Source: an uncultured Acidimicrobiales bacterium (lineage in GTDB: Bacteria; Actinomycetota; Acidimicrobiia; Acidimicrobiales; Aldehydirespiratoraceae). Taken from it: DNA of 64,000 nucleotides. The notes beneath the pieces were generated by a model that did no database searches, had not been told where the DNA came from, and was given only the letters and a program-made list of their open reading frames with translations. This document shows positions 3,859-46,810 of this stretch, piece by piece (positions within the stretch are counted from its first letter, which is position 1; each line of letters starts with the position of its first letter). The stretch spans positions 242,773-306,772 of the forward strand of contig CATOTC010000005.1 in assembly GCA_951812975.1 (NCBI GenBank). The letters are read 5' to 3'. The translations under genes were made by a program, and so were the position numbers.

Positions 3859-4646
3859 GACAGCGTCTGTTGACCATCAACAAGCTCAGCGTCACCTTCG
3901 GCGGGCTCCACGCCCTCAAAGACCTCGACTTCCACGTCGACGAGGGCGAGATCGTGTCGGTCATAGGACCCAACGGCGCCGGCAAGACCACCTTCTTCAA
4001 CATGATCTCAGGGATGGTCACACCGACCTCCGGCGACATCATCTTCAAGGGCGAGTCGCTGTTGGGGCTCGACCCCAACCAGGTGACCGCTGCGGGAATA
4101 GCCCGCACGTTCCAGAACGTCCGCCTGTTCGCCAACATGACCATCCTCGAGAACGTGATGGTCGCCCAGCACTGCCGCACCCGACAGGGAATCTGGGGTG
4201 CGCTGCTCCAGACCCGCTCCTTCAAGCAGGAGGAACGGGAGATCCGCGAGCACGCTGAGTTGGTGTTGAGCTTCTTCGGCACCCGCCTGGTGGGCTACCG
4301 GCTGGACCAGCCCGCCGCGGTGCTGTCCTATGCCAACCGGAGACGCCTGGAGATCGCCCGGGCAATGGCCACCAGGCCGACGGTCATCCTGCTCGACGAA
4401 CCTGTCGCCGGGATGAACCCCAAGGAGTCCGCGGCGCTCACTCAACTGATCGGGGAGCTGCGCAGCGACTGGGGCTTCACAATCGTGATGATCGAACACG
4501 ACATGAGCGTCGTTCGAGACGTGAGCGACCGGGTGGTGGTGCTCGACCACGGCGAGACGATCGCGCAGGGATCCTACGAGGAAGTGTCGACCAACCCCGA
4601 CGTGATCGAGGCATACCTCGGACGCCCCGCCAAGGAGTCCGCATGA
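3855..4646 (+). CDS. livG: ABC transporter ATP-binding protein LivG
   Basis: ATGA overlap with livM. Walker A GPNGAGKTT present. LivG-type C-terminal extension. Confidence 0.9.
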   Translation: MRQRLLTINKLSVTFGGLHALKDLDFHVDEGEIVSVIGPNGAGKTTFFNMISGMVTPTSGDIIFKGESLLGLDPNQVTAAGIARTFQNVRLFANMTILENVMVAQHCRTRQGIWGALLQTRSFKQEEREIREHAELVLSFFGTRLVGYRLDQPAAVLSYANRRRLEIARAMATRPTVILLDEPVAGMNPKESAALTQLIGELRSDWGFTIVMIEHDMSVVRDVSDRVVVLDHGETIAQGSYEEVSTNPDVIEAYLGRPAKESA

Positions 4647-5392: not shown

Positions 5393-6225
5393 TCAGCCGG
5401 TTTGTCGAGGGCGGTGGCGGCGAGCCGCTCGAGCAGGGCCAGTGTCTTGGAGCGGAGGGTCTCGGCAGCTGTCGCCAGGTTCTCAACGAACTGAGCCTCG
5501 GTGGCAACGGGCGAGTCGACCAGATCGGTGATCGTCTTGACAGCGCCTACAGGAATTGCGTGGAGGTGGCCGACCCATGCAACAGCCGCCGCCTCCATCT
5601 CCTTGACCTCGGCACCGCTGGCAATGATCCTCTCGCGGTCGGTCGGTGACTCGTCGAAGCTGTCGCCGGTCGTGACGATGCCGAGTCAACAACCGAGCGC
5701 TGAGGCGTGACTCCGCAGGTCCGCCGCAGCAAGCTTGCTCTCACCCATGACATCGAAACCCGGTAGCGGGATCCGACGGTCATGACAGGTGAAGCGGGGC
5801 CACGCGAAGTAGGCGTCACCGATCTGCGCGCCGGCCCGGAGCCATCCGCCGGCGGTCCCGATCGAAAGAACCAGATCCGCAGCGGGACGATCCAGGTTGA
5901 GGGGACGATCCAGGTTGAGGGGACGATCCAGGTTGAGAGCGACGTGGGTGGTGAGGGCCGCGGCTGTGCTGCCGACCGCATCGACGCCGAAGATCGGATC
6001 GGTCCCGTTGACCGCGAGGAGCACGTCGGGTCTGTCGTCAGTCGCAGGAGCATGCGAGAGCCGACACGGCAGGCCGGCGGCCCAGACCGGCGGGTCGAGA
6101 GGCTGCGCCCCGAGAGCGTCTCGCAGCGGCGCCGCCTCCGCCTCCATCGCCATGACGATCACCACACGCTCCGCCCGCTCGACAGCGGTGTGACCGCGAG
6201 TCGCGGATCCAGCTTCGGTGCTCAT
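5374..6225 (-). pseudogene. 5'-methylthioadenosine/S-adenosylhomocysteine nucleosidase (MTAN/Pfs; MqnB-type also possible), interrupted by in-frame TGA at 5686-5688 and carrying an LNLDRP x3 insertion
   Basis: Segments align to E. coli MTAN: VIVMAMEAEAAPLRD ~ GIIGAMEEEVTLLRD; SIGTAGGW ~ NTGSAGGL; after the TGA, LGIVTTGDSFDES ~ GLIVSGDAFI and EMEAAAVAWVGH ~ EMEATAIAHVCH. The flanking ORFs 5686-6537 and 5374-5598 are in the same frame, separated only by the TGA. Confidence 0.6.
5884..5937. repeat. perfect 18-bp tandem repeat x3 (GGGACGATCCAGGTTGAG) inside the MTAN homologue, encoding LNLDRP x3
   Basis: Three identical back-to-back copies read directly in the sequence. In-frame. Confidence 0.9.
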
Positions 6226-6398: not shown

Positions 6399-7403
6399 CT
6401 AGGGCAACAGTCCCAGGGCGTCGGCAACCCGGTCTCGGTGCTGTCGGGCATCGCCGTAGGCGCCCGAGAGGCTCCAGCCCCGCTTCAGCCAGATCTGCAG
6501 GTCGTACTCGAACGTGTAGCCGATAGCCCCGTGGCACTGCAGAGCGGCTCGACAGGCCCGATCAACCGCATCGGACGCCATCGCCTTGGCCATCGACACG
6601 TCGCGGCCCCGCAGCACCGAATCGTCACAGTGTGCGACCGACCAGGCCGCCCGGTACACCAAAGGAGCAGAGAACTCGATCCCCAGTCTGACGTTCGCAA
6701 GATGATGCTTGACGGCCTGATAGGTGCCCACCGGCTTGCCGAACTGCCTGCGCTCGGTCACATACTCGACGGTGGTGTCGAGCAAGCGCCGCGCAACACC
6801 GACACACTGCGCGGCGGTGCCCAGAGCGGCCCGATCAGCCGCCAGAGCGACGTCCGCACCGGCCAGAGGGTGTGCTGCGTCCGGGTCGAAACTGATCTCG
6901 AAGAGGCGACGGGACTGATCAATCGAGTCTTTGGGCGTGACAGTCAACGCCTCAGCATCAACGGCTACCAGCGATTCTGAATGCTCAGCAATCACAAGGT
7001 CGGCCGACGCTGCGGCCACAACATTGGGGCCTCCCGACGCCAACGCCAACGTGACCGTGCTCCCACCACTGAGCGCCGGATCCAACAGCTCAGAAGCACC
7101 CGCAACAGCCAGCGCGGGAACTGCCACGGCCATGTGCTCCATCAACGGTTCGGGGACCCCCGCGTAGCCCGCCTCCTCGAGCAGACGAACCGACGCCACC
7201 TCGTCCATGCCGAGTCCGCCCGCTTCGGTCGGGGCCATGGTCGCCAGCACACCAACCTCTGCGAGCGTGGCCCACAGCCCAGGCACCCGCCCGTCGTCGC
7301 TCTCCCAGCTTGTGCGAATCGCCTCTGCGCTGCACTCGCCGGCGAAGACTTCGCGGACCGTGTCACGGAACATGTCGTGCTCTTCGGTGAAACTGAAATG
7401 CAT
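6399..7403 (-). CDS. acyl-CoA dehydrogenase family protein, partner subunit of a heteromeric ACAD pair
   Basis: ACAD C-terminal helical domain motifs. 5 bp from the upstream ACAD gene on the same strand. Confidence 0.75.
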   Translation of the reverse strand: MHFSFTEEHDMFRDTVREVFAGECSAEAIRTSWESDDGRVPGLWATLAEVGVLATMAPTEAGGLGMDEVASVRLLEEAGYAGVPEPLMEHMAVAVPALAVAGASELLDPALSGGSTVTLALASGGPNVVAAASADLVIAEHSESLVAVDAEALTVTPKDSIDQSRRLFEISFDPDAAHPLAGADVALAADRAALGTAAQCVGVARRLLDTTVEYVTERRQFGKPVGTYQAVKHHLANVRLGIEFSAPLVYRAAWSVAHCDDSVLRGRDVSMAKAMASDAVDRACRAALQCHGAIGYTFEYDLQIWLKRGWSLSGAYGDARQHRDRVADALGLLP

Positions 7404-7408
7404 CAGCG

Positions 7409-8551
7409 CTACCTCCGGGGCAGACCCAGCACGCGTTCAGCGATGATGTTGCGCTGAATCTCGTTGGTTCCCGCATAGATCGGCCCGCCGAGGGCGAACA
7501 CGTATCCGTCGAGCCAGTCGCTCGGGACTTCCGCTTCATCGCCGAGCAGGCGCAGCGCCGTTGCATGGAGCTCCAGATCCATCTCAGACCAGAAGACCTT
7601 CATCAAGCTGGCCTCGGATCCGAGGTCACCGCCTGCCATCAACTCGGCGGTCACAAAATAGGTCTGCCAGCGGTATGCCTCTGCACGGATCCAGGCGTCA
7701 ACCACCTCGTCTCGCAGGCGTGCGTCCAAGCCGTCAGCCGTCTCGCCCAGTTCGGCAGCCAGACGCCTGAGCCGTTCCGCAGCAGCCATGAAACGACCGG
7801 GGCTGCGCAGGTTCAGCCCGCGCTCGGAACCCGCTGCAGCCATGGCCACCGCCCAGCCCTGGCCCGGTTCGCCGAGAACGTGATCAGCGGAGACCCTGCA
7901 GTCGTCGAAGAAGATCTCCGCGAATCCCGACTCGCCGTCGAGGCGTTGGATCGTCCGGCGGGTCATGCCCGGCGCATCGGCCGGCACCAGCAGGTAGCTC
8001 AGACCGGCGTGGCGTTCGGCGGTCGGGTCGGTGCGCACAATGCAGAAGATCCAGTCTGCGTACTTGCCCCTCGAGCACCAGGTCTTCTGGCCGTTGACGA
8101 CATAGTCGTCGCCGTCACGGACCGCCGTCGTCTTGATTCCAGCCAGATCCGAACCGGCTTCGGGCTCAGACCAGCCCTGTGCCCAGATCTGCTCGCCGCT
8201 GGCCATTCTCGGGAGGAAGTAGTCCTGCTGGGCCTTGGTGCCGAAGTTGAAGACCGTGGGGGCCAGCAGGCTCACGCCGTTGGCACTCACCCGGCCCGGC
8301 ACGCCCGAGAGCCAGTACTCCTCCTCATAGATCAGCCATTCGATCAGGTCACAGTCGCGCCCGCCGTAGGCCGCGGGCCACGCCGGCACAGACCAGCTTC
8401 CCTCGAACAGGGTGCGTTCCCATCCCCGATGCTGCTCGAACCCGGCCGCTGAGTCCATCGAGGAGAACTCTTCGGTCGGGCGGTTCTCGTGCAACCAGGT
8501 CCGGCATTCGTCGCGGAACTCGATATAGCGCGGCGACAGCTCAAGGTCCAT
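7409..8551 (-). CDS. acyl-CoA dehydrogenase (FadE-like)
   Basis: ACAD N-terminal, middle and C-terminal motifs (NGQKTWCS...GKYADW; GTNEIQRNIIAERVLGL). Ala replaces the usual catalytic Glu in the YxGT motif, consistent with the alpha2beta2 ACADs of steroid-degradation clusters. Confidence 0.8.
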   Translation of the reverse strand: MDLELSPRYIEFRDECRTWLHENRPTEEFSSMDSAAGFEQHRGWERTLFEGSWSVPAWPAAYGGRDCDLIEWLIYEEEYWLSGVPGRVSANGVSLLAPTVFNFGTKAQQDYFLPRMASGEQIWAQGWSEPEAGSDLAGIKTTAVRDGDDYVVNGQKTWCSRGKYADWIFCIVRTDPTAERHAGLSYLLVPADAPGMTRRTIQRLDGESGFAEIFFDDCRVSADHVLGEPGQGWAVAMAAAGSERGLNLRSPGRFMAAAERLRRLAAELGETADGLDARLRDEVVDAWIRAEAYRWQTYFVTAELMAGGDLGSEASLMKVFWSEMDLELHATALRLLGDEAEVPSDWLDGYVFALGGPIYAGTNEIQRNIIAERVLGLPRR

Positions 8552-9303
8552 CAGCGAAACTCAGCCTTGCGCACACCGCTGGGGTCGAACACCTCCCGGA
8601 TCAGCCTCAACTCCTCATCCGTGGGCAGCCGACTTTCGCCGACATCGCCGGTCACGGCCAGCTCGAAGGGCGAGGCCTCCTGCGCCTGTTCGAGGCTGAC
8701 CCCAGGATGCAGCGAACGCACACGCATCCTGCGGTCTTCGGTGTCGAAGTCGTAGGCCCCGAGGTTGGTGACCACCCGCCTGATCTCGAAGTGTCTTCGG
8801 CTGGCTTCGGGCAGCTGTGCGATGCGGTCATATCCGGGGGCGGAGACAACGTCGACCGTGTTGGAGAAGGTGCGGGCCTGATTCGGTATCCAGTAGGTGG
8901 TGGGGTGGTTGAGCAGGTTGCCCGGAGCTCCACGCAGCCCCAGCAGCTGCGCTTTGGGCTTGCGGTAGGGCCCGATGGCCGCAAAGTTCTGATTGCCGTA
9001 TTGATCCATTTGGCTGGCACCCATCACCACATGGCGTTTCCCCGACCACACCTGATCGAAGACCGTTCTAAACGGCATGTATCCCTCGATCACTGCGGTT
9101 GAAGGGTCTCCACCGAGCGGAAGGTTGCCCTCGATCGCATAGGCGATCGTGTCGGTCAGCATGAGGCCGGGTTCAAAGGACGCCCTTGCCAGACGCCCGG
9201 CGATCACCGGCAGCGGGCCCATCGGGTTGCACAACACTTCGCCGTCACCCCTGAAGGCCTCCGCCAGAGCGACGACGCAGATCTCATCAAGAGTGGCGGT
9301 CAT
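8551..9303 (-). CDS. CoA-transferase subunit B (IpdB/3-oxoacid CoA-transferase beta-like)
   Basis: Homology begins at MTATLDEICVVALAEAF (ATG 9303). The ORF-track N-terminal 119 aa is read-through. Overlaps the subunit A gene. Confidence 0.75.
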   Translation of the reverse strand: MTATLDEICVVALAEAFRGDGEVLCNPMGPLPVIAGRLARASFEPGLMLTDTIAYAIEGNLPLGGDPSTAVIEGYMPFRTVFDQVWSGKRHVVMGASQMDQYGNQNFAAIGPYRKPKAQLLGLRGAPGNLLNHPTTYWIPNQARTFSNTVDVVSAPGYDRIAQLPEASRRHFEIRRVVTNLGAYDFDTEDRRMRVRSLHPGVSLEQAQEASPFELAVTGDVGESRLPTDEELRLIREVFDPSGVRKAEFR

Positions 9304-10174
9304 TGCGCGCTCCTTCGGTGAGCTTGGCGACGTAGGCATCGTGTGATTCGAGTTCCAACCAGTCCTTGCGGAACTGCTCCCAGGCCTCGGGGTCACGGGC
9401 GGTTGCGGCGTAATCGCCCTGGAAGGCCTCGTCGCGACCGTAGTCGGGAGGGCATTCGGTGAAATGGGCACCTTGTGATGCCTGCACGACTCCGTCGACG
9501 TGGGTTCGCGGGATCCGCAGCGTGTGAATCGATCCCTCTTGAAGAAACTGCTCTGTGGGAACGATCTGTTCTGCAGACATGAAGGTCTTGTCAGCAGCCA
9601 TTGCGAACAGGTCGTCGAAATACAGGTCCGGTCCCAGGAACTGGCCGTTGCCCTTGGCATCGGCCCGGTTCATGTGGAGGATCGCCGCATCCATCTGAAA
9701 TGCCGGAACGGCCACCAGCTCCTCGCCGTCGTCGTAGGGAGACCTCACCGTCTTGAGATCAGGGTTCTCCGACATCATCGCGGTGCCCAGACCTGCTCGG
9801 GTCGGATAGAAGGGCATTCGATGGGCGGCGGCCATCAAGCCCAGATAGAAGGCACCTTCGTCGAGTTCGGAGATGTCGACGGCGCCTGTCTGGCGGGCGA
9901 CCCGGAAATGGGGTTCCAACGGGATCGAGTCCAGCGAAACGAAGCCGTAGGTGACCTTTCGGACCTTTCCCGCAGCGCACAGGATCCCCACATCGGGTCC
10001 GCCGTAGGAGACGATGTCGAGGTCGGTCAGGTCGCTGCGCAGAATGGCCCGCACCAGCGACATCGGCTTGCGACGAGACCCCCAGCCGCCGATGCCGAGC
10101 GTCATCCCACTGCGGAGTTCAGCGATGACCTCGTCCTCGGTCATTCGTTTGTCTGCCACTGAGACTCCCCTCAT
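9287..10174 (-). CDS. CoA-transferase subunit A (IpdA-like)
   Basis: GMTLGIGGWG glycine-rich motif. N-terminus DKRMTEDEVIAEL aligns to IpdA-type starts. Start taken at the M 18 codons into the tracked ORF. Confidence 0.75.
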   Translation of the reverse strand: MRGVSVADKRMTEDEVIAELRSGMTLGIGGWGSRRKPMSLVRAILRSDLTDLDIVSYGGPDVGILCAAGKVRKVTYGFVSLDSIPLEPHFRVARQTGAVDISELDEGAFYLGLMAAAHRMPFYPTRAGLGTAMMSENPDLKTVRSPYDDGEELVAVPAFQMDAAILHMNRADAKGNGQFLGPDLYFDDLFAMAADKTFMSAEQIVPTEQFLQEGSIHTLRIPRTHVDGVVQASQGAHFTECPPDYGRDEAFQGDYAATARDPEAWEQFRKDWLELESHDAYVAKLTEGARNDRHS

Positions 10175-10397
10175 CGATCGTGCCGGTCCCGGCCTCAAGG
10201 GCCCCCTGACGGTATTCCACCGCAATCCGCGTTGCTAAACCCGCAGCGGAGGTCCCTCCGGCTAGCACAGGCACCAAGACGGTGACGGCAACTGTTCGGC
10301 GCAGGGGTGTGAAAATACGCGTAGGGTTCTATTCCACCGGACCTCCTTCAGATTCGGTGCGTCTCAACTCCGATTCTGGAGGCCCGGGCACCCCGCA

Positions 10398-11081
10398 ATG
10401 GACCCAGTCCCCGCTCATATTCGAAGAGCTACAATGCTGCTTCTGGTACTCGTGCTTGGCATCCTGCTGCCGGCGTCATGCGGGTCTGACGGCGAAGCAC
10501 TGGAACACATCGCCAATCGCTCCGATAGTGCTTCGCGTGAGCGAACCTATTCCTCGGTCACCGAACTCCGCGACCTGATAACTCAACGCAAGGAGTCAGA
10601 GGTTGGGAACGAATTGGTTGTCGTCGGTGAGATCACCGAGGTCAGCAGAGGTGCATCGTTCAGTTGGGATGTCGATGACACAACAGACACAGTGGTCAAG
10701 ACCCAATACCCTTTCGGCGACGATCGGGCGATGGTTCGTACCATTCACTTGACTGTTGCTGTTTCGGAGGTGATTGCCCCGCCCAGCGAAGAGAATATCG
10801 GGACGATTACCGTTGGTCTTGTATTCGACTCTGGGATTGGTTTCGATGCCGTAAACAATGACTATTCAGACCTTGGGACGGTGGTGTTGTTCCTAAGCCA
10901 AAGCGCAGTGTTCGACTACGAACCTGGGATCTATGGAATCTTCGAAGGTGGCGCGTTGATGGGAGTGCTTAAGAATGACGGAACTCTGCATTTCCCGGCT
11001 ATGTCAGAGCCGGGAATTCTCCTCGGCGGCAGCCGAACGATCGCGTTGGACACGCTGAGGGTCGGAGACGTCGACCGCTAG
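10398..11081 (+). CDS. hypothetical secreted protein/lipoprotein (RR-containing signal peptide, LLPASC lipobox-like)
   Basis: N-terminus MDPVPAHIRRATMLLLVLVLGILLPASCGS. GC content visibly lower than neighbours. No family recognised. Confidence 0.5.
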   Translation: MDPVPAHIRRATMLLLVLVLGILLPASCGSDGEALEHIANRSDSASRERTYSSVTELRDLITQRKESEVGNELVVVGEITEVSRGASFSWDVDDTTDTVVKTQYPFGDDRAMVRTIHLTVAVSEVIAPPSEENIGTITVGLVFDSGIGFDAVNNDYSDLGTVVLFLSQSAVFDYEPGIYGIFEGGALMGVLKNDGTLHFPAMSEPGILLGGSRTIALDTLRVGDVDR

Positions 11082-11203
11082 TTGGTCGATCGCTAGTTGA
11101 TCGACTGGCAAACACCCATAACACCTGGACTCACAAACGGGTCCCCGTCACCCTCGGTTTCTCGGCTTGCTTGGCCCCGAAGGCTCGCCGGTAGGGTGGC
11201 GGC

Positions 11204-12468: not shown

Positions 12469-12521
12469 GCACCGGGCGACCTTCAACCTGTGGAGAATAA
12501 TCCAGGAAAATTCTCCATCCG

Positions 12522-12935
12522 ATGGAGAGAAATCCTCAATTGGACCTCGTCCACCGCGATGCCCTGCATCAGACTGACTGGTCCCGCGTCCAGACCAGCG
12601 CGTTCTTGCAACGGCTCACGGGAGGGCTGGGATCACGGGTGAACAGCTCAGCAATCGCAAACGACCTACGCACGTCGGCCAACACGGTACGACGACGGAT
12701 CACCGCTCTGCAGGAGGCTTTCGTTTTATGGCCGTGCCACCGATCCCACAATCTGGAGCCGCAACTGCGTGCACAAGAGAAGCTGTACTTCACCGATCCG
12801 ATCTTCACCCGCCTTCAGCCCGACAGCTCCACCGACTCTTCTCTGCTGTCTGAACAACAACTCGGGGTGGCGCTGTTGCGGGCACTGGAACGCGAGGAAC
12901 CCGGCACTTACCTGGAGTTCGACCGGGTTTGCGCT
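12522..12935 (+). pseudogene. 5'-truncated fragment of a DUF4143-domain AAA ATPase
   Basis: SSAIANDLRTSANTVRRRITALQEAFVLW...KLYFTDPIF matches only the C-terminal DUF4143 region. The AAA domain is missing. The fragment begins right after a low-GC hairpin. Confidence 0.4.
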
Positions 12936-13811: not shown

Positions 13812-15218
13812 ATGGAATCAGCTTCTGTGACCGGCCTGTTGGACCCCACCACCGCTGTTGGTGTCGGTTGTGGCATTGCCGGGTCGGTGTGTGTCGGGCG
13901 GGTTGATGAGGCGGGGTTGTCTGATGAGGGGCTGCGGTCACACTTGAAGGTGTTGGGTCGTGCGGAGTCTCGGTTGGTGGCGATGAGGTCGCGGGCGTTG
14001 GCTGAGTTGAGCCGCCGTCACAGCACCGCGGATGCGCAGCGTCTGGTACGTGACGAGCTGCAGGCCTCCAAGCGAGAGGCCAAACGCGATGTTGAGACCG
14101 CGGCGCGGTTGGCGGAACTGCCAGCCACCAGTGAGGCGTTGGAGTCTGGTGAGATCCCCCAAGGTCACGCCCGGTTGATCGCCCGAGCATCTGGGGAGAG
14201 CCTGATCGATGAGGCGCTGCTTGTCGAATCAGCCAACAGCGAGCCCTTCGATGAGTTCGCCCAGACTGTGAAACGCCATCAACAAGACGTGGCCGATGAC
14301 GACGGACAAGCCTTGTTGGACCGTCAACGCGCCAAACGCAAAGCACGGATCTTCGAATCAGCCGACTCTGGGATGTTCGTGCTTTCTGCCGAGTTCGATC
14401 AGATCACCGGAGCACGAATCGCCACCGCGTTGACCGCCAAAGAACGACAGCTGTGGCACCGCGAGGACCCCACGGCGCGTGCCACGCCCCAGCAGCGCAT
14501 GGCCGACGCGTTGGCCAAGCTGATCTGTCAACCATCCGGTGACGGAAAGTCTGCGGGCACGGATCTGCTGGTGATCGCAGATTTCGATGTGCTCAAACAA
14601 CAACTCGACAACCCCCGGTTGGCTGACGGTTCACCAATACCGATCGTTGAGCTGCACCGCCTGGCGCTCGAAGCAAACCTGTTGCCCTCGATCTTCGACG
14701 CCAAAGCCCAAGACATGTGGATGGGCCGCCGCCTGCGGACCGCGACTGAAGCTCAACGTGTCGCGTTGATCGCAAGAGACCAGCACTGCATCGGCTGTGG
14801 CGCCAACCCCTTGTGGTGCCGAGCACATCACATCATCTGGTGGTCAAGGAACGGACCCACCTACCTCGACAACCTCGCACTGGTCTGCGACGACTGCCAC
14901 CACAAAATCCACGACCACCACTGGCAAGTCCACCAAGACCCAACAACCGGAAAATACGACCTCAAACCCCCTGGCGCCACCGACACGACAACTGCGATCA
15001 AGCAGATCAGGACACAAAGCCGAACCACCCAGAGCAACCCAACCGCCGCAACGAACACCACCGACCCCAGCAGGACACAAGACCGAACCGCCCAGTGCAA
15101 CCGAACCACCGCATGCCCGGGCGATACGGAGACGTCCAAACAGATGACACTGACCGGCCCCCTACAACAGCACGCAGTCGGCGCCGGCGACGCCGATCCG
15201 TCAAACAGAAAACGCTGA
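13812..15218 (+). CDS. DUF222 + HNH endonuclease domain protein (REP13E12-family-like)
   Basis: HNH motif CIGCGANPLWCRAHHIIWWSRNGPTYLDNLALVCDDCHHKIH. N-terminal DUF222-like region. Thr/Gln/Pro-rich low-complexity tail. AT-rich upstream region. Confidence 0.85.
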   Translation: MESASVTGLLDPTTAVGVGCGIAGSVCVGRVDEAGLSDEGLRSHLKVLGRAESRLVAMRSRALAELSRRHSTADAQRLVRDELQASKREAKRDVETAARLAELPATSEALESGEIPQGHARLIARASGESLIDEALLVESANSEPFDEFAQTVKRHQQDVADDDGQALLDRQRAKRKARIFESADSGMFVLSAEFDQITGARIATALTAKERQLWHREDPTARATPQQRMADALAKLICQPSGDGKSAGTDLLVIADFDVLKQQLDNPRLADGSPIPIVELHRLALEANLLPSIFDAKAQDMWMGRRLRTATEAQRVALIARDQHCIGCGANPLWCRAHHIIWWSRNGPTYLDNLALVCDDCHHKIHDHHWQVHQDPTTGKYDLKPPGATDTTTAIKQIRTQSRTTQSNPTAATNTTDPSRTQDRTAQCNRTTACPGDTETSKQMTLTGPLQQHAVGAGDADPSNRKR

Positions 15219-15300
15219 CCGACGCCCAACAACAGCACGCAGTCGGCGCCGGCGACGCCGATCCGTCAAACAGAAAACCCAGACCGGCACCGAACAACAC
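15148..15300. repeat. ~65-bp tandem repeat x2.3 spanning the HNH gene stop codon
   Basis: CAACAGCACGCAGTCGGCGCCGGCGACGCCGATCCGTCAAACAGAAAAC occurs at 15165-15212 and 15230-15277, with matching CTGACCGxCxCC leaders. Unit 1 contains the TGA stop. Confidence 0.8.
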
Positions 15301-16158: not shown

Positions 16159-17159
16159 CCGTTTACCTCGTCGGTGCAGGGCCGGGAGACCCCGACCTGC
16201 TGACCGTCAAGGCCACCAGACTGCTGCAGCGCGCCGATGTGGTCGTCTACGACCGCCTCATCGAGCCGGCAGTGCTCGACCTCGCCCCGCCCTGGGCCGA
16301 GATGATCGACGTCGGCAAGCGCCCCGGCGCACCCACGGACTCCCAGACCCGAATCAACGATGTGCTGATCGACCGGGGCCGCCGGTTCGACTGCGTCGTC
16401 CGTCTCAAAGGGGGCGACCCCTTCGTGTTCGGACGCGGCGGGGAGGAGGCACTCGAACTGCGGGCCGCAGGCATCGACGTCGAGGCGGTACCGGGGATCA
16501 CCTCTGCATTAGCGGCACCCGCCGCGGCCGGGATACCCGTCACCATGCGAGGCGTTAGCAGCGGTTTCACCGTCGTCACCGGCCACCAGGACCCCAACAC
16601 CGACCAATGGCTCGACTGGGACGCCCTCGCTCGCACCGGCACGACCCTGGTGATCCTGATGGGCGCATCACGCACCACCCTGATCTCGCAGCGGCTCATC
16701 GCCGCCGGAATGGCCACCGACACGGCCGTCGCCATCGTCTACTCCGCTACGACCGACCACGAGAGCGTCACAAGAACCACCCTCGCCGAACTTCCCGACA
16801 TCGAAGTAACCAACCCGTCGACGCTGGTGATCGGCTCAGTCGCCGCCCAATCCGTGATCAAAACGGAACTGACTCAGTGCTTAGCGGAGGTGACCATGGC
16901 CGCAGCCGGGCTGAATCGAGGCGAAACCGGGCTGGCCCCGGCCGTAGACGCAATCCCCGCCTCTCCCGGCCATTTCAACACCAACGCGCTCGCCAACCAT
17001 CACGAACTAGCCAACCATCAACAACCCGCCAACCGACACGAACCCGCCAACAACCACCAACCGGCCGGCAACGGGGAAGCGGCCGGCTCTCAAGAACCGG
17101 CCCACCGCCAAGAGACGACCGACCGTAATGAACCGACCCGGAAAGGGGCCCTGAGATGA
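16155..17159 (+). CDS. cobA: uroporphyrinogen-III C-methyltransferase with C-terminal low-complexity tail
   Basis: ATGA overlap with upstream gene. VYLVGAGPGDPDLLTVKA and VVRLKGGDPFVFGRGGEE motifs. Confidence 0.9.
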   Translation: MTVYLVGAGPGDPDLLTVKATRLLQRADVVVYDRLIEPAVLDLAPPWAEMIDVGKRPGAPTDSQTRINDVLIDRGRRFDCVVRLKGGDPFVFGRGGEEALELRAAGIDVEAVPGITSALAAPAAAGIPVTMRGVSSGFTVVTGHQDPNTDQWLDWDALARTGTTLVILMGASRTTLISQRLIAAGMATDTAVAIVYSATTDHESVTRTTLAELPDIEVTNPSTLVIGSVAAQSVIKTELTQCLAEVTMAAAGLNRGETGLAPAVDAIPASPGHFNTNALANHHELANHQQPANRHEPANNHQPAGNGEAAGSQEPAHRQETTDRNEPTRKGALR

Positions 17160-18949
17160 CCCTCCTCGAAACGACCAGAATCGAAACACGGCCCGTCGAT
17201 CCCGACATTCAAGCGGACATCGACAAGTTCCGCGACGTTCTCGCCCAATACCGGAGAGGCGAAGTCTCAGAGGATGTGTTCCGAGTCTTCCGACTGACCA
17301 ACGGCATTTACGGCCAACGGCAGGGCGGAGACAACCATATGGTTCGAGTCAAGGTTCCCTACGGGTCCATGGACCCCGAACAGTTCGAGATGCTGGCGTT
17401 CATCGTCGAGCGCTACAGCCGAGGCTGGGCCCACATCACCACCCGACAGAACCTCCAGTTCCACTTCGTGCAACTCGATCAGATCCCCGACGTGCTCGAC
17501 CATCTCGCGGCAGTGGGCATGACCACCCGCGAAGCCTGCGGCGACACCGTTCGCAACGTGCAGGGCTGTCATCTCGCCGGTGCCTGCCCCCATGAGAACC
17601 TCGACATCACGCCGTGGGCGGAAGCGGCCTACCGCCACTTCGTGCGCAACCCGTTGAGTCAACGACTGCCCCGCAAGTTCAAGATCAACTTCTCGGGATG
17701 CGAGACCGACTGCGGTCAGGCCATGTTCAACGACGCCGGTGTGATCGCCACCACCCGCACCCTCGACGACGGAACGACCGAGGCAGGATTTCGAGTCTTC
17801 GTCGCCGGAGGACTCGGCACAACGCCGTTCCCCGCCCAGGCAATTGAAGAGTTCACCCGCAAGGAGGAACTGCTCCCCACACTTGAAGCGATCCTGAGGG
17901 TCTTCGACCAGACCGGCAATCGAGACAACAAACTCCGCGCCCGGATGAAATGGGTGGTCGAACAACTCGGAATCGACGAGGTTCGACGGCGCGTGCTCGC
18001 CATCCGCAAGTTCCTGCTCGCCTCCTCGTCGTACCCAGGTGGTCTTCCCACCGAAGTGCGAGTCGACGGCGATGCGCCCGCCGGGATAGATGCCACCGCG
18101 AACATCACGAAGGTCGGGCAGGGAATACCGGTCAGCATCGGTGGGGCCTCCCCGTACGACAAATGGTTCAGCGCCAATGTGGTGCGGGGAATCGCCTCAG
18201 GTCAGGTGTCTGCCTACGCCTGGGCGCAACTCGGAGACATCACAGCTGAACAGTTCCGTGCGATCGCCGCGATCAGCCGGGACTTCGAAGCCGACATCCG
18301 CCTGACAAACCGTCAGAACCTGATCATCCGGGGACTCGACGAGTCGCAACTGCCCGAACTCTACCGACGGTTGGATGCCGCAGACATGGCACGACCCGGC
18401 GCGGAGTTGGTCAGAGACGTGGTGGCCTGTCCCGGTGCCGACACCTGCAACCTCGCGGTCACCCAGAGTCGGGGACTCGCCAAAGCGATCGGCGACGCCC
18501 TCGAGACCGAAGGACTCGCCGAAGTGGCCGGTCTGCGAATCAACATCAGTGGATGCCCCAACTCCTGCGGGCAGCATCATGCGGCCGACATCGGATTCTT
18601 CGGGGCCGAGCGCCGGGCCAACGGGCGTTCAGCACCCGGCTATCAGATGATGCTCGGGGGCTACATCGGGCAGGAACAGGCACACTTCGGAACCAAGACC
18701 CTGCGACTGCCGGCAAAGAACGCGGCCGAAGCGGCGGTGCGGGTTGTTCATCGTTTCAACGACGAACGCACCGTCGGCGAGTCGTTCCGTGCCTGGATCG
18801 AGCGTTCCGGTGGGGTGAAGAGCATCGCCGCGGGACTCAAGGACCTCGACCAGTTCCCGGCCTATGACGATGACCCGGAGTTCTACACGGACTTCGACGA
18901 GGCAGGCCCCTACGAAGCAGTCGTCGGCGATTCGGAGTGCGCCACCTGA
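17156..18949 (+). CDS. ferredoxin-dependent sulfite (or nitrite) reductase hemoprotein, siroheme/[4Fe-4S]
   Basis: ATGA overlap with cobA. Cys clusters CGDTVRNV.C...CP and CPGADTC...CPNSCGQ. Two nitrite/sulfite reductase repeats. Confidence 0.9.
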   Translation: MTLLETTRIETRPVDPDIQADIDKFRDVLAQYRRGEVSEDVFRVFRLTNGIYGQRQGGDNHMVRVKVPYGSMDPEQFEMLAFIVERYSRGWAHITTRQNLQFHFVQLDQIPDVLDHLAAVGMTTREACGDTVRNVQGCHLAGACPHENLDITPWAEAAYRHFVRNPLSQRLPRKFKINFSGCETDCGQAMFNDAGVIATTRTLDDGTTEAGFRVFVAGGLGTTPFPAQAIEEFTRKEELLPTLEAILRVFDQTGNRDNKLRARMKWVVEQLGIDEVRRRVLAIRKFLLASSSYPGGLPTEVRVDGDAPAGIDATANITKVGQGIPVSIGGASPYDKWFSANVVRGIASGQVSAYAWAQLGDITAEQFRAIAAISRDFEADIRLTNRQNLIIRGLDESQLPELYRRLDAADMARPGAELVRDVVACPGADTCNLAVTQSRGLAKAIGDALETEGLAEVAGLRINISGCPNSCGQHHAADIGFFGAERRANGRSAPGYQMMLGGYIGQEQAHFGTKTLRLPAKNAAEAAVRVVHRFNDERTVGESFRAWIERSGGVKSIAAGLKDLDQFPAYDDDPEFYTDFDEAGPYEAVVGDSECAT

Positions 18950-18952
18950 ACC
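18890..18952. repeat. 63-bp direct repeat, left copy (3' end of sulfite reductase ORF incl. stop)
   Basis: Identical to 20867-20929. Pairwise comparison read directly in the sequence. Confidence 0.9.
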
Positions 18953-19080
18953 CGGGCACGCCGACTTGATTCGGGAGAAGCCAACCGACCCAAAATATCG
19001 CAACCGACCACGGGCATCCGACCGAGTCGGGAAGCACGACCGACAGCGACCTACCATTGCTCCAACAGAGCGCCCGTTTT

Positions 19081-20307
19081 CTATCCCGCTGGTTTGCGTT
19101 GTTTCAGTTCATACTGGGCGTTGGCTCCGAACTCAACCCTGAATGGGGCTGCGTGAGCTGAAGCCGGGTCGGCCTTGACGCCCTCGGCGCCCAAACATCG
19201 CAGGATCCAGTCAAGCCACTCGTCGTGTTCATCCGGCTCGAGCATTGAGATAATCTGTCGCGTGAGTTCGCGCCCGTTGGCAAACTTCCAATTGCTGCCA
19301 AGCTCGTTGAGGGGCCAGAAATCCCAACGGTGATCGTCTCTCAGAACGACACGTCTGCCATTGCTGAGATCCGCGAACTCTTGGGAGCGGAACTCGCGTA
19401 TTCCCCACGCAGTCATCTCCTTGCGCTGGGACTCCAGCTCCCTACCGGACCAATCCACATGGTAGGGCTGCTCAAGAAAGGCGTAACCGCCGACGTTGGT
19501 CGGGGAATACACAGGATCGGTCAAGTAGTCCAACTCACAGACAGCACCGAACGCGACAACATCCACGGCTCTTCCTCCAGCTTCAGAAATCAGCTCAACC
19601 TCCGTCTTGGGCTGACGCAGTTCATGTTGGACGCGAGGGCCGAACTCCACAACAAAAGGCGCCGCGTGGACCGATGCCGGGTCAACCTCAAAACCCGATA
19701 AACGTAAACCTTCGATCACCCATCCCTCCCAGACGTCAATGGTGTCCACCTCGTCTGGGCCAAGCACCCAGATTGCGTCTCTGATGAGTGCTCGCCCGAC
19801 TGCGGTCCTCCACTTGCTGCCATAGTCGTTTCGCGGCCAGCTAGACCAGCCACGGTCGTCCTTTAACGTGACACGCCTTCCATCACTGAGATCCGCGAAC
19901 TCCTCCAATCGAAAATGGGGTTTGCCCGACTCGACCATTCTTTGTCGCTGTCTCGACATCAGATCGGGGGACAACAACATGTCACGAGTAGCAAAGGAAC
20001 CCTTGCCTATCAGGGGCTTCGGTCTCTTGTTCTGGGCGAAAGATTCTGCTTCCAGGTCTCCAGGCACCACATTTCCCGGAGAATCAAGCGCAGGTTGACG
20101 TTGTGGAGCATCCAAATCTACCAGTTCGCACACCGCGCCGAGCGCAACTACGCCAACCACGTCCCGTCCCTCCAATCCAACGAAAGACCTACCGGGAGGT
20201 GCAGGGAATGCTATAGGCGCTAGAATGATACTTCTCGGATCCGTCAACTTCACCCGGAATATCAACATCAACAACAGCACGCCAAGAAACGGTCCGCCTT
20301 GTAACAC
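19081..20307 (-). CDS. hypothetical protein made of two tandem ~180-aa homologous domains (true start probably near 20180-20270)
   Basis: Internal duplication: EFADLSDGRRVTLKDDRGWSSWPRN...DPASVHAAPFVVEFGP vs EFADLSNGRRVVLRDDHRWDFWPLN...DPASAHAAPFRVEFGA. No known family recognised. Confidence 0.5.
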   Translation of the reverse strand: MLQGGPFLGVLLLMLIFRVKLTDPRSIILAPIAFPAPPGRSFVGLEGRDVVGVVALGAVCELVDLDAPQRQPALDSPGNVVPGDLEAESFAQNKRPKPLIGKGSFATRDMLLSPDLMSRQRQRMVESGKPHFRLEEFADLSDGRRVTLKDDRGWSSWPRNDYGSKWRTAVGRALIRDAIWVLGPDEVDTIDVWEGWVIEGLRLSGFEVDPASVHAAPFVVEFGPRVQHELRQPKTEVELISEAGGRAVDVVAFGAVCELDYLTDPVYSPTNVGGYAFLEQPYHVDWSGRELESQRKEMTAWGIREFRSQEFADLSNGRRVVLRDDHRWDFWPLNELGSNWKFANGRELTRQIISMLEPDEHDEWLDWILRCLGAEGVKADPASAHAAPFRVEFGANAQYELKQRKPAG

Positions 20308-20836
20308 AAGTGAACCGAGCGTTCACTCTTGCAGCGCTGTTTCCGGTTCCCGGCCACAGCCGTTTGGTCTTGGACTTGTTGACTGTATGCCAGTAGCAAA
20401 TGGTTCCTTCGGCGACGGAACCGCATCGATACACTTGGAGCGCTACCCAGACATCTGCTTTTTCTGGACAATCGCCTCCAAGGGGCCTCCACCAGCCATG
20501 CACTGACACATCAGTCCGATTGAACGAGTTTGAGATGTGGACATCATCGCTGTCTCCGGTGTGTTGGCAGTTGGTGAACCAAGGCCAACGCGCCAAAGAC
20601 GATCCAGACCTCGACCAAGCGGACAGATCGCTGTCTTCGTCGGCGTATGCGCCAGAAAACTGGCTGTCCACAAAGTCGCCGTTCGCTGATCCAGAACTAG
20701 CCCCCTCGTCGGACGCCGGTTCGTCATACGCAGAAGCGGATGAGGTAACGACGACTGACAGAACGAAAAAAACACAGCCATAATTTTCAGTGCTGATTGA
20801 AACTTCACAACAACCCTCCCAGGTAGTAATAGTCAC
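20189..20836 (-). CDS. hypothetical Cys/Trp-rich protein with hydrophobic signal-like N-terminus (GTG start; uncertain)
   Basis: ...YGCVFFVLSVVVTSSASA|YDEP resembles a signal-peptide h-region plus AxA site. An acidic linker is followed by a Cys-containing domain. Low GC. Overlaps the neighbouring ORF by ~120 bp. Confidence 0.35.
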   Translation of the reverse strand: MTITTWEGCCEVSISTENYGCVFFVLSVVVTSSASAYDEPASDEGASSGSANGDFVDSQFSGAYADEDSDLSAWSRSGSSLARWPWFTNCQHTGDSDDVHISNSFNRTDVSVHGWWRPLGGDCPEKADVWVALQVYRCGSVAEGTICYWHTVNKSKTKRLWPGTGNSAARVNARFTCVTRRTVSWRAVVDVDIPGEVDGSEKYHSSAYSIPCTSR

Positions 20837-20866
20837 GATGCTATCGGGTTCGGCGCGAAACAGACC

Positions 20867-20929
20867 GACTTCGACGAGGCAGGCCCCTACGAAGCAGTCG
20901 TCGGCGATTCGGAGTGCGCCACCTGAACC
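20867..20929. repeat. 63-bp direct repeat, right copy
   Basis: Identical to 18890-18952. Confidence 0.9.
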
Positions 20930-20949
20930 GATCTACGATCACGGGTGAC

Positions 20950-21915
20950 ATGGCGCCCGAGTTCAACACCGAGTTCGATCCCCGCTACGGGGAACTGATC
21001 GAGGTGTCGCCACTGCTGCGACGGATCGTCTGCAACAACCCGTCGAAGTACACCTTCCACGGCACCGGCACCTACGTGATCGGCCACCGCGACGTGGCCG
21101 TGGTCGATCCCGGTCCCCGCGACCCGGCCCATGTCGAGGCACTGCTGAGGGCACTGGGCAATGAGACGGTCCGCGCCATCCTGATCACCCACACCCACGG
21201 CGACCACTCCCCTGCGGCCGCCGCGCTGCACGACGCCACCGGCGCTCCCGTGCTCGGCTTCGGCCCCCACCCCGAAGACGCCACCAGCGAAGAGGCCGAC
21301 GAAACCAGCGACGAAGAAACCGACAGGGCCGACCAGGGCGCAGACAGCATCCGACACGACGCACACGGGCCCGACGTCGACTTCAACCCCGAGACCCGGC
21401 TCGCCCACGGCGACACTGTTGACGGGCCAGGTTGGACCGTACAGGCGCTGCACACCCCCGGGCACATCTCCAACCATCTCTGCTTCGCGCTGACCGAAGA
21501 AGGCGCGCTGTTGACCGGCGACCACGTGATGGGCTGGTCGACAACGATCATCCCGCCCCCCGACGGCGACGTCAGCGACTACCTGCGGTCACTGCAGCTG
21601 GTACTGGACCGCAACGATCAGGTCCTCTACCCGACCCACGGCGGACCGGTCCACGACCCGCGTCGCTACGTGTCGGCGCTGCTCAACCATCGCCTTCGGA
21701 GAGAAGCCCAGATCCTGGAGCAACTGGCCGAGGGCCCATCCTCGGCAAGAGAGATCGTCGCCGTGCTCTACGCAGACGTGCGCAAGGAGCTGCACCGGCC
21801 TGCGGCGCGGTCCGTCGTCGCCCACCTCGCGAAACTTCGAAAAGAAGACAGAGCCGCGCCCGTCGTCGACGACGCTTCGCCCACATCGTCTGACACAGTC
21901 TGGGCCCTCAGCTAA
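20950..21915 (+). CDS. MBL-fold metallo-hydrolase
   Basis: ITHTHGDHS metal-binding motif. Start at MAPEFNTEF. Confidence 0.8.
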   Translation: MAPEFNTEFDPRYGELIEVSPLLRRIVCNNPSKYTFHGTGTYVIGHRDVAVVDPGPRDPAHVEALLRALGNETVRAILITHTHGDHSPAAAALHDATGAPVLGFGPHPEDATSEEADETSDEETDRADQGADSIRHDAHGPDVDFNPETRLAHGDTVDGPGWTVQALHTPGHISNHLCFALTEEGALLTGDHVMGWSTTIIPPPDGDVSDYLRSLQLVLDRNDQVLYPTHGGPVHDPRRYVSALLNHRLRREAQILEQLAEGPSSAREIVAVLYADVRKELHRPAARSVVAHLAKLRKEDRAAPVVDDASPTSSDTVWALS

Positions 21916-28066: not shown

Positions 28067-28160
28067 TTCTTTTCTCCTCCAGGAATCACAATCGGTCTGT
28101 GACTCACGCCACAAGGTCTAGCACCTCGGAGCGCGATTTGGGTACGCCACAAGCAATGAA

Positions 28161-28232
28161 CCGTTCCCCGGCTCCGGCCACGCCCGGCGAAGACACCGTT
28201 CCCCGGCTCCGGCCACGCCCGGCGAAGACACT
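28161..28232. repeat. 36-bp tandem repeat x2 (CCGTTCCCCGGCTCCGGCCACGCCCGGCGAAGACAC), member of the dispersed GGCTCCGGCCACGCCCGGC family
   Basis: Two perfect adjacent copies in the intergenic region between two minus-strand genes. Core shared with the 42763-43035 array. Confidence 0.9.
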
Positions 28233-37958: not shown

Positions 37959-38948
37959 GTGCCGACCAGCGCAGAGCCGAAGACCCCTGTTTCAATGCTG
38001 GTGGACTGTGATCCGGGGCTTGACGACGCTATCGCTCTGCTGACCGCGGCGTATTTTTCGGAGTTGGTCGGTATCACCACTGTCGACGGCAACGTGGGGA
38101 TCGAGCACACCACCCGCAACGCCCTGGCGGTGGCGCAAATCGCCGGGCTCGACGTTGACGTTCACCGCGGGGCGGCGCATCCGCTGGCCGACGAACCCAG
38201 AGGCGCACGACACGTTCACGGTGCCACCGGACTCGGCGACGTGGAACTGCCCGCTATCACCCGGTCCATCGAATCCGACGACGCTGTCGGGTTCATCCTC
38301 GAAACCAGCCATCGGATCAAAGACCTTCATCTCGTGGCGGTCGGGCCTCTCACCAACATCGCCGAAGCGCTGCAACGAGACACCACGCTGCCCGACCGGC
38401 TCAGCGGGCTCACCATCATGGGAGGAGCGGCAGTGGGGGGAAACGTCACCGCCACCGCCGAGTTCAACATCTGGGCCGACCCCGAAGCCGCCGACATCGT
38501 CTTTCGTCTGGGGGGCGACATCACCATGGTCGGGCTCGACGTCACCCAACAGGTGCTGCTCGGACCCGATCAAGTCGCGCAGATGCGTCTTGCCGACACC
38601 CCCGCGGCGACCCTCGCAGCGGACCTCCTCGGCTACGCGATCGACCGGTCAACCGAGTTGAGGGGCTGGACGGGGGCCCCGATTCACGACGCCTGCGCAG
38701 TGCTCGCCGTGACCCACCCACACCTGTTCGCCGGAAACCGCCGGCCAGTCGCCATCGAACTCACCGGCACACACACCCGGGGCATGACCGTCGTGGACGA
38801 TCGGCACGCAATCACACGCAACGCAAACACAGGCAACGATCACGCAGACGGCGACAACAGCGTCCGCGTCCTGCGCACCGCGGAGGCTGACGCGGTCATC
38901 GGGTTGATCGTCGAGGCCGTCACCGCAGGCCCCCTACACCGGACCTGA
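37959..38948 (+). CDS. nucleoside hydrolase (IUNH family)
   Basis: DCDPGLDDAIAL aspartate-cluster motif. 2 bp after the ribokinase stop. Confidence 0.85.
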   Translation: MPTSAEPKTPVSMLVDCDPGLDDAIALLTAAYFSELVGITTVDGNVGIEHTTRNALAVAQIAGLDVDVHRGAAHPLADEPRGARHVHGATGLGDVELPAITRSIESDDAVGFILETSHRIKDLHLVAVGPLTNIAEALQRDTTLPDRLSGLTIMGGAAVGGNVTATAEFNIWADPEAADIVFRLGGDITMVGLDVTQQVLLGPDQVAQMRLADTPAATLAADLLGYAIDRSTELRGWTGAPIHDACAVLAVTHPHLFAGNRRPVAIELTGTHTRGMTVVDDRHAITRNANTGNDHADGDNSVRVLRTAEADAVIGLIVEAVTAGPLHRT

Positions 38949-39188
38949 CGAACTCACCGAGCGATACAGGCTCAGACCGAGCGGTACAGGTGCGCGATGA
39001 AGCGGTCTCCCACCTCGATGCCCGCGTCCGCGTCCTGCGCACCGCGGGGGCTGACGCGGTCATCGGGTTGATCGTCGAGGCCGTCACCGCAGGCCCCCTA
39101 CACCGGACCTGACGGACTCACCGAGCGATACAGGCTCAGACCGAGCGGTACAGGTGCGCGATGAAGCGGTCTCCCACCTCGATGCCCG
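38864..39188. repeat. ~161-164-bp tandem duplication x2 covering the 3' ends of two convergent genes
   Basis: 38864-39024 and 39025-39188 are near-identical (2 mismatches noted). Each copy carries the nucleoside-hydrolase C-terminal codons plus stop, and the tail of the minus-strand ORF. Confidence 0.85.
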
Positions 39189-42712: not shown

Positions 42713-42762
42713 GAGAAGCAACGGTACCCGGTGCACGGATGCTCGTCACCGCCCGCATCCTC

Positions 42763-43035
42763 CGCGGCTCCGGCCACGCCCGGCAACAACACAGCGCTAA
42801 CCCCAGACGACACCAGCGGCCACGGCTCCGGCCACGCCCGGCAACAACACAGCGCTAACCCCGCACGACACCAGCGGCCGCGGCTCCGGCCACGCCCGGC
42901 GCAAACACAGCGCCCGGCACCGCAACAACCTGTCACGGCTCCGGCTCCGCCCGGCGTTAGCAGAGCGCTATCCTCAGACGACACCAGCGGTCGCGGCTCC
43001 GGTTGTGCCCGGAGCAAACACAGAGCGGCAAGACC
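42763..43035. repeat. ~58-bp tandem repeat array x5 (VNTR/MIRU-like), progressively degenerate
   Basis: Units start at 42763, 42821, 42879, 42934 and 42992. Each begins C(G/A)CGGCTCCGGCCACGCCCGGC. Sits in the intergenic space upstream of the CDF transporter gene. Confidence 0.85.
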
Positions 43036-46625: not shown

Positions 46626-46810
46626 ACGTCACAGACACACCCAACAGCGAACCGATCAGGAACGCGGCACCGCAAGCGCGAACTCGCTACGTCACAGACA
46701 CACCCAACAGCGAACCGATCAGGAACGCGGCACCGCAAGCGCGAACTCGCTACGTCACAGACACACCCAACAGCGAACCGATCAGGAACGTGGCACCGCA
46801 AGCGCCTGCC
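46626..46810. repeat. 63-bp tandem repeat x~3; each unit re-encodes the C-terminus plus stop of the VIT transporter gene
   Basis: Unit starts at 46626, 46689 and 46752 (period 63). Reverse-complement translation of each unit gives ...FLIGSLLGVSVT*. Confidence 0.85.

Follow-up and report, generated by a model that had tools for sequence, protein, structure and literature searches.

The 3′ end of a sirA gene in an uncultured Acidimicrobiales bacterium is followed by a 1.9 kb islet that lies between two identical 63 bp sequences. The DNA analyzed, termed the window, was a 64,000 nt stretch of contig CATOTC010000005.1 (positions 242,773 to 306,772; GenBank assembly GCA_951812975.1; Aldehydirespiratoraceae in GTDB). 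The islet (18953-20866, 1914 bp) separates sirA, which encodes a sulfite or nitrite reductase of the NirA type, from the gene of a metallo-beta-lactamase (MBL)-fold hydrolase. It carries two genes, orf215 and orf359. The islet was first noticed in a reading of the window's letters, referred to below as the original prediction. On balance it is probably a small, horizontally exchanged islet without a recombinase of its own, situated in an insertion hotspot between sirA and the MBL gene and moving by means of the 63-mer.

Repeats and composition of the islet

The features of the islet and its surroundings are listed in Table 1. The two repeat copies were identical at 63/63 nt, as the original prediction had stated. 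Identity stopped at both edges of the 63-mer, and a 66 nt span (18887-18952 and 20864-20929) contained one mismatch. The 63-mer was the sole long dispersed repeat in the 64 kb window; all remaining long repeats were tandem. The sirA product matched Pfam NIR_SIR (E = 6e-56) and NIR_SIR_ferr (E = 8e-38). All of its NCBIfam matches fell under the curated cut-offs, the best being to the NirA family, and orthologs of sirA were present in all related loci. The MBL gene starts 20 nt after the distal copy, also as originally described. The spacer and MBL start of the window matched those of two empty sites in related genomes (L090 and L003).

Table 1. Positions of the islet, its repeats and the adjoining genes in the window.
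Feature	Position	Strand	Remarks
sirA, gene of a 597 aa sulfite or nitrite reductase of the NirA type	17156..18949	+	3′ end is the target
Proximal 63 bp repeat copy	18890..18952	+	Last 60 nt of sirA including TGA, plus ACC
Proximal islet spacer, 128 nt, non-coding	18953..19080		From repeat copy 1 to the orf359 stop
orf359, cytoplasmic protein of two homologous domains	19081..20160	-	The earlier 408 aa ORF extends to 20307
orf215, secreted Cys/Trp-rich protein	20189..20836	-	N-terminus frameshifted in this genome
Distal non-coding islet end	20837..20866		Between orf215 and copy 2
Distal 63 bp repeat copy	20867..20929	+	Identical to the proximal copy; non-coding here
Native 20 nt spacer and MBL-fold hydrolase gene	20930..21915	+	ATG at 20950; Pfam Lactamase_B and BLACT_WH

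The islet had a GC content of 56.2%, the lowest among all 1914 bp windows of the stretch; the lowest value elsewhere was 59.4%. The low GC content that had been described for the islet was thus borne out, while the value of about 67% given for its flanks was too high for the window as a whole (mean 63.7%). The GC content at third codon positions (GC3) was 0.61 and 0.54 in the islet open reading frames (ORFs) compared to 0.70-0.83 in six neighboring genes. The islet lies below its surroundings in both measures and is therefore a foreign segment by composition.

Occupied and empty sites in related genomes

Ten informative Acidimicrobiales loci were obtained by scanning species-representative genomes with the MBL protein and by context look-ups. 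Four of them (L003, L090, L007 and L008) were empty sites of the kind that the original prediction expected, with one homolog of the 63-mer about 23 nt before the MBL start. The ancestral order that had been proposed, of sirA stop, short spacer and MBL gene, was found in these single-copy sites with a gap of about 23 nt. The islet is an insertion.

The same arrangement as in the window was present in L001, an independent assembly from another sample (ENA ERZ25068966). Here a 60/60 nt identical repeat encloses both cargo genes, and the islet is 87.4% identical to that of the window over its full length. The sirA tree placed the window with L089, L002 and L090, and L001 with L003. The sirA genes of L001 and L003 were 96.8% identical, those of the window and L001 85.8%. 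The islet is found in the window and in L001 and is cleanly missing in close kin of each, so it behaves as one unit in gain and loss, and its presence cuts across the sirA tree.

The closest relatives of the window, L002 and L089 (sirA 91.5% and 93% identical, respectively), contained an unrelated insert of 525 bp with a GC content of 51% at TGAAC^C after the sirA stop (L002 5451-5977; L089 about 1992-2520). The two inserts were 96% identical and were flanked by the 6 nt repeat CTGAAC. On the minus strand of this insert, as read from the sequence, is a gene whose small product (MLSEMRPLLVPVGWGV...) has two hydrophobic stretches.

Homologs of the islet ORFs were found at this position in four further loci. 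L084 had lost the distal copy along with the larger part of orf215 and codons 1-191 of the MBL gene. A second short fragment in this locus (7400-7460), like the 3′ end of an orf408-type gene (the longer, earlier form of orf359), was joined to what is left of the MBL gene near codon 192, which points to a further rearrangement at the hotspot. In L085 the MBL gene was absent and a gene for an Fe-S protein of roughly 750 aa had been gained. This gene (8880-11171) lies between sirA and the orf359 homolog, encodes two CxxCxxCxxxCP motifs with a weak match to Pfam Fer4_7, and has a called 3′ end that overlaps the end of sirA. L087 and L088 had a different proximal junction, in which the native spacer ACCGATCTACGATCA was kept, and other DNA on the distal side; in L087 this included, by our reading, an insertion sequence (IS) transposase fragment. 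Several different inserts thus follow sirA in relatives, and the 23 nt gap between sirA and the MBL gene is an insertion hotspot.

The original prediction had named the same ORFs at this position without a flanking repeat as a finding that would count against it. Such ORFs do occur, as L084, L085, L087 and L088 had a different proximal junction and no detectable second copy. On the distal side, however, these loci have a deletion, are broken by an IS fragment or extend past the contig end, and they are non-decisive for the repeat question.

Divergence of the islet and its hosts

Between the window and L001, four-fold degenerate sites differed at 14-16% in the islet genes compared to 34-39% in the host genes (Fisher P = 3.5e-11). 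The synonymous divergence (dS) was 0.14-0.25 and 0.60-0.71, respectively (Table 2). Overall nucleotide identity had at first hinted at vertical descent, as the value of the islet equals the 85.8-87.3% of the flanking genes. This equality is explained by faster protein evolution in the islet, where nonsynonymous divergence (dN) is higher. The ratio dN/dS was 0.29 and 0.68 in the cargo and 0.03-0.18 in the host genes.

Table 2. Divergence of islet and host genes between the window and L001.
Gene	Four-fold sites differing	dS	dN/dS
orf359	15.5%	0.25	0.29
orf215	13.5%	0.14	0.68
sirA	39%	0.71	0.059
MBL	34%	0.60	0.176
ABC	39%	0.71	0.026

As judged from these divergences, the islets of the window and L001 diverged from each other much later than their hosts did, which indicates horizontal transfer between the lineages. 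The original prediction had regarded the cargo as stranded after its recombinase was lost. Neither part of that description was supported. The islet has evidently moved between lineages, and there was no sign that a recombinase had ever belonged to it: no integrase remnant was found, and the cargo pair occurs elsewhere without repeats.

Junctions and conservation of the 63-mer

L001 was compared with its empty sister L003. The flanks were 96-100% identical up to the repeat on both sides, and the sole local excess consisted of four clustered differences within the 63-mer. At two of these four positions L003 had the outgroup state (L007 and L008) while both copies of L001 were like the window. 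The proximal copy of L001 has the same end as that of the window, TGA-ACC, and leads into islet sequence. The end of its distal copy is TAA-CCC, with the spacer after it, exactly as in empty L003. The current sirA stop in L001 would therefore have arrived with the islet, the native end being displaced. The 63 bp repeats form the limits of the transferred unit. The original prediction had left two origins side by side, att-site duplication by site-specific integration and templated duplication of the target. The L001 junctions, together with the cluster of four bases, better fit recombination with an islet-borne sirA end and would exclude a simple templated duplication of the L001 target. As hybrid attachment sites (attL and attR), the copies of L001 fit in their right-hand parts; the left-hand cluster was element-like in both copies, unlike the expectation for a single crossover.

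The copies were identical within each genome, and the single difference between the genomes (A/C) was common to both copies. This pattern had P < 1e-4 under neutral drift of the distal copy. The distal copy differed between the window and L001 at 1/60 positions compared to about 19% in other non-coding islet DNA (P = 4e-5 to 7e-4). Third-position identity in sirA was calculated for seven ingroup genomes, including islet-less ones. It was 0.919 in the last 60 nt of the gene, rank 1 of 578 windows (gene mean 0.72, standard deviation 0.063).

A native near-repeat of 18 nt, TTC(T/A)ACACCGACTTCGAC (encoding F-Y/N-T-D-F-D), was found 69 nt before the sirA stop and again 11 nt into the MBL gene. It lies at 18884-18901 and 20962-20979 in the window and at 4375-4392 and about 4479-4496 in L003. 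L001 and L003 had the near-repeat at 17/18 identity, and the window had a weaker form. The 63 bp repeat begins inside it. This position at the left edge may leave room for a microhomology-mediated origin of the repeat.

Recombination within the 63-mer and its alternatives

Recombination within the 63-mer is the most likely route of transfer. The islet would carry one copy of the sirA 3′ end and enter a new genome by recombination inside the 63-mer, in the simplest form by Campbell-type integration of a circular form. The crossover would remake a full sirA from the incoming copy and push the old end to the far side, beside the MBL gene. Recombination between the two copies would excise the islet precisely, recreating the empty site and a circle. 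The enzyme could be a site-specific recombinase acting in trans or the homologous recombination machinery of the host working on 63 bp of identity.

A more specific and rather doubtful form of this proposal is that the 63-mer is the working attachment site of a minimal non-autonomous cassette that still cycles at the sirA 3′ end in this Acidimicrobiales clade by means of some recombinase or of host RecA, with a new secreted effector and a partner or immunity family as cargo. Such a cassette would imprint its copy of the site on the host gene. Repeated cycles of integration and excision may overwrite the 63-mer with the islet copy, and imprinting of this kind would make the last 60 nt of sirA the most conserved synonymously even in islet-less genomes.

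Several observations weigh against exchange through the 63-mer. The sirA end is unusually conserved at synonymous sites in genomes without the islet too, and an overlapping signal, for example for MBL expression, could keep the distal copy conserved with no need for an att function. The proximal copy of L001 lacks the native left bases of the L003 type that a single reciprocal crossover predicts; extra gene conversion, a linear fragment bearing the two copies, or a first event and then spread within the species would be needed. No recombinase was found within 10 kb in the syntenic, gene-called L001 locus, the rest of the window not having been screened for one. There was no tRNA gene in the window, the islet had no terminal inverted repeats, and the core of the 63-mer was not found in viral contigs. 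The islets of L084, L087 and L088 follow sirA by a different proximal junction that keeps the native spacer, and no second copy was visible. The cargo pair is also present at another locus without a flanking repeat (L101), which makes the repeat a property of the sirA site and not of the cargo. No toxin or immunity domain was recognized in the cargo, and its functional assignment is drawn from gene architecture.

An alternative origin, somewhat unlikely, is that the repeat was a by-product of illegitimate or microhomology-mediated rearrangement, for instance by homology-facilitated illegitimate recombination or through a small tandem duplication that started from the 18 nt near-repeat, and that the islet later spread among close relatives by homologous recombination in its flanks. 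The layout would then survive because sirA needs its last 20 codons and the MBL gene needs the upstream 63 nt for expression. The coincidence of the left repeat edge with the near-repeat, which L001 and L003 have in both the sirA end and the start of the MBL gene, agrees with such an event, as do the three different insertion points within the 23 nt spacer, the repeat-free insertion of the cargo pair elsewhere and the failure to find a recombinase within 10 kb in L001. The island of synonymous conservation in islet-less genomes also suggests an overlapping function. However, in the window and in L001 alike the repeats mark the limits of the foreign segment, which does not run to varying positions in the flanks. 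Supposed remains of the native spacer and of the start of the MBL gene in the non-coding islet ends scored no better than shuffled sequences, 71/500 and 391/500 of which scored at least as well. No promoter-like site and no Rfam match was detected in the 63-mer, and no RNA structure reaching to the MBL start was supported. A hairpin of the sirA end with the MBL start appeared in single-sequence folds and was rejected, as z-scores were -0.3 to -2.3 and the covariation term was unfavorable (+0.83).

Inheritance from a single ancient insertion is improbable. Here the islet would have descended vertically and been lost precisely several times (L003, L090 and the L002/L089 lineage), with gene conversion keeping the copies identical. 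The matching overall identity of islet and flanks is what vertical descent predicts, precise loss through a 63 bp repeat is easy and would yield the observed empty sites, and a substitution common to both copies fits conversion. It is contradicted by the low four-fold and dS divergence of the islet genes and by the outgroup-like state of L003 inside the 63-mer where both L001 copies are like the window, and it requires at least three independent precise losses.

A transposable element with a 63 bp target-site duplication would also leave direct repeats of target sequence around an insert. The target duplications of known transposases are roughly 2-15 bp. This explanation is very improbable given that length, the lack of terminal inverted repeats, of a transposase and, in the window and the fetched loci, of any further copy of the element termini, and the differences of the L001 copies from the native L003-type target (TGA-ACC instead of TAA-CCC and the four clustered bases). 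An assembly artefact, that is a collapsed or chimeric join at the 63-mer, has nothing in its favor except the general risk of metagenome assembly. Its probability is negligible, as the same structure occurs in the independent L001 assembly from a different sample at 13% divergence, partial islets are present at the same locus in four further assemblies, and the flanks run cleanly into orthologous genes.

A phage origin was rejected, there being no PHROG match and neither relatives of orf359 nor copies of the 63-mer core in viral contigs.

Cargo genes

The islet genes form a minus-strand operon in the order orf215, orf359. The original prediction had listed two minus-strand ORFs of no recognizable family. 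Both exist and neither had a match in Pfam, NCBIfam, PADLOC or PHROGs, while the length of 408 aa given for the larger one was revised to about 359 aa. Its start is GTG 20160 with GGAGGG 7 nt upstream, and full-length homologs start there (30 homologs aligned). The two homologous domains noted in this protein were confirmed, the halves being 42% identical (E = 2e-39). An exhaustive profile search of 1.84 billion proteins gave 222 representatives of the orf359 family, mainly single-domain proteins of 120-220 aa. Nothing convincing was found when 100 remote homologs were scanned with Pfam. Profile searches and structure prediction had been proposed in the original prediction. Sequence-profile searches against the PDB were empty for the ORFs, and confident predicted structures were obtained that had no fold match.

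The smaller ORF had been described as Cys/Trp-rich and signal-peptide-like. In agreement with this, members of the orf215 family are secreted and about 200 aa long. They have a signal peptide and a linker of low complexity, and share six conserved Cys as well as two motifs, SVHGWW and VVDVDIPG. The orf215 product is predicted to be a disulfide-rich beta-sandwich of no known family or fold. Compared to L001, L087 and L088, orf215 of the window had a net loss of 4 nt in a T-rich signal-peptide stretch (20740-20836). As a result the mature domain is not in the reading frame of the usual start, GTG 20808, which has GGGAGGG before it. The window copy is probably defective, a pseudogene with a real frameshift, unless a homopolymer sequencing error is responsible. 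No exact match to the window protein was found in the database, the best being 83% identical.

The cargo pair recurs, at loci unrelated to the sirA site, in L082, L083, L091, L094, L095 and L101. In these loci the secreted gene is directly followed by the partner gene, and extra partner paralogs occur. L083 contained one secreted gene and three partner paralogs and L095 two tandem pairs. In L082 the pair lies beside an IS110 transposase gene. In L101 (7176-10224) the pair was inserted together with a PIN/MazE-type toxin-antitoxin pair inside the NADH dehydrogenase operon, between NADHdh (nuoH) and Fer4 (nuoI), with the orf215-like gene at 7238-7975 and the orf408-like gene at 8001-9176. A flanking direct repeat was looked for around the L101 pair and none was found. 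By analogy the cargo is most like a pair in which a secreted effector or toxin is matched by its cognate partner or immunity protein. The order of secreted gene and cytoplasmic partner, the tandem arrays and extra paralogs (L083 and L095), the proximity to IS elements and a PIN/MazE pair (L082, L087 and L101) and the raised dN/dS are all shared with the toxin-immunity and effector cassettes known from polymorphic toxins and bacteriocins. In contrast to these cassettes, neither protein had a toxin, immunity or secretion-system domain by sequence or fold.

Comparison with known elements

Cis-mobilizable elements (CIMEs) are decayed integrative elements that keep attL and attR and have lost the genes for integration and transfer (PMC5704250). 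The islet is similar in that direct repeats containing the target gene's 3′ end lie on both sides of it, no recombinase lies inside, relatives have a single-copy, unoccupied site, and the gene end beside the islet appears to be supplied by it, as judged from L001. CIMEs are recognized as remnants left by integrative and conjugative elements (ICEs) or integrative and mobilizable elements (IMEs) at sites of known integrases, often in tandem with a functional element. The islet differs in that no remnant of a gene for integration or transfer is present, a partner element is lacking, and no integrase is known that uses its site. Its size is a mere 1.9 kb, and at other loci the cargo pair has no repeats around it. 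Nearby ICE or IME genes were not found, and the two cargo genes were the only genes between the repeats. No integrase was recognizable among the islet ORFs, and none lies within 10 kb in L001. The islet works like a CIME or other att-flanked islet, and the recombinase and the ICE/IME remnants by which such elements are recognized are missing from it.

Integrase-mediated islands in gene 3′ ends have att identity segments of about 18-60 bp; examples are SGI1 in trmE and pSAM2-type elements in tRNA genes. The islet resembles these in the length of the identity segment, in its position at a gene 3′ end and in the apparent restoration of the gene by an element-borne copy. SGI1 and pSAM2-type elements encode a tyrosine or serine recombinase and are many kilobases in size, and the actinobacterial ones mostly target tRNA genes. 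None of these three features (own recombinase, many-kilobase size, tRNA target) was found for the islet.

At chromosomal hotspots different accessory genes fill one gap between core genes, usually by exchange in long flanks and without defined repeats. The gap between sirA and the MBL gene is similar in having received at least three unrelated or differently joined inserts within 23 nt. The exchanged islet differs in being bounded by a 63 bp repeat.

If the islet truly moves through the 63-mer, few known integrative cassettes would be smaller; it would lack a recombinase and target the end of a protein-coding gene. It would have left a detectable mark on synonymous sites of the host and would be a tractable case for the spread of recombinase-less islets between species. 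If the repeat were a by-product of local rearrangement, this would be an ordinary hotspot islet whose interest is mainly in its cargo. The cargo comprises two small unannotated protein families, which move together and are inserted within core operons. They are candidates for a new secreted effector or toxin and its partner.

Non-coding ends of the islet

About 95 nt of the proximal spacer were confined to the window and L001, and the remainder was homologous to the short spacer of L084, L087 and L088. The spacer was 81-85% identical between the window and L001 and absent from the other fetched loci. It contained two loose copies of a motif of about 21 nt, CGGGCA..CCGAC..GA.TCGGG, which did not recur elsewhere in the window. 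There was no Rfam match to the proximal spacer, and it folded no better than shuffled sequence. At the other end, the region from the orf215 start to copy 2 (20809-20866) was identical to L001 at 41/59 positions, and homology to L087 and L088 ceased about 25-30 nt short of copy 2. The orf215-orf359 operon must have its promoter within or next to the distal non-coding end. Two sigma-70-like promoter matches (20755-20784 and 20804-20833, plus strand) were found within the 5′ end of orf215, antisense to it and facing the MBL gene, compared to 0.5 expected from shuffles. They could be the present drivers of the MBL gene, which is now cut off from the sir operon.

Other features of the window

A gene for an HNH endonuclease (13812-15218) lies upstream of the sir operon, and its L001 ortholog matched Pfam DUF222. 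The gene was present in L001 and L003 and missing at this position in L090, L084 and L085. Its 3′ end contained a 65 nt tandem repeat of 2.5 copies (15137-15299). A link between this gene and the islet was considered and rejected, as the gene also adjoins the empty site of L003. A fragment of an AAA_14/DUF4143 ATPase gene (12501-12932) covered residues 253-395 of 469, and the intact equivalent was present in L001 and L090.

Tandem repeats of 18 nt were found just before sirA, in the 3′ end of a cobA-like methylase gene (16991-17066; L001 13020-13199). They encode a Pro/Asn/His/Gln-rich tail and numbered about 4 copies in the window and 7 in L001. Near-perfect tandem repeats were found at 38860-39188 (164 nt x 2, 98%), 46626-46805 (63 nt x 2.9, 99%), 42762-43023 (units of 58 or 113 nt), 45036-45112 (21 nt x 3.7, 100%), 28160-28231 (35 nt x 2.1, 100%) and 5884-5937 (18 nt x 3, 100%).

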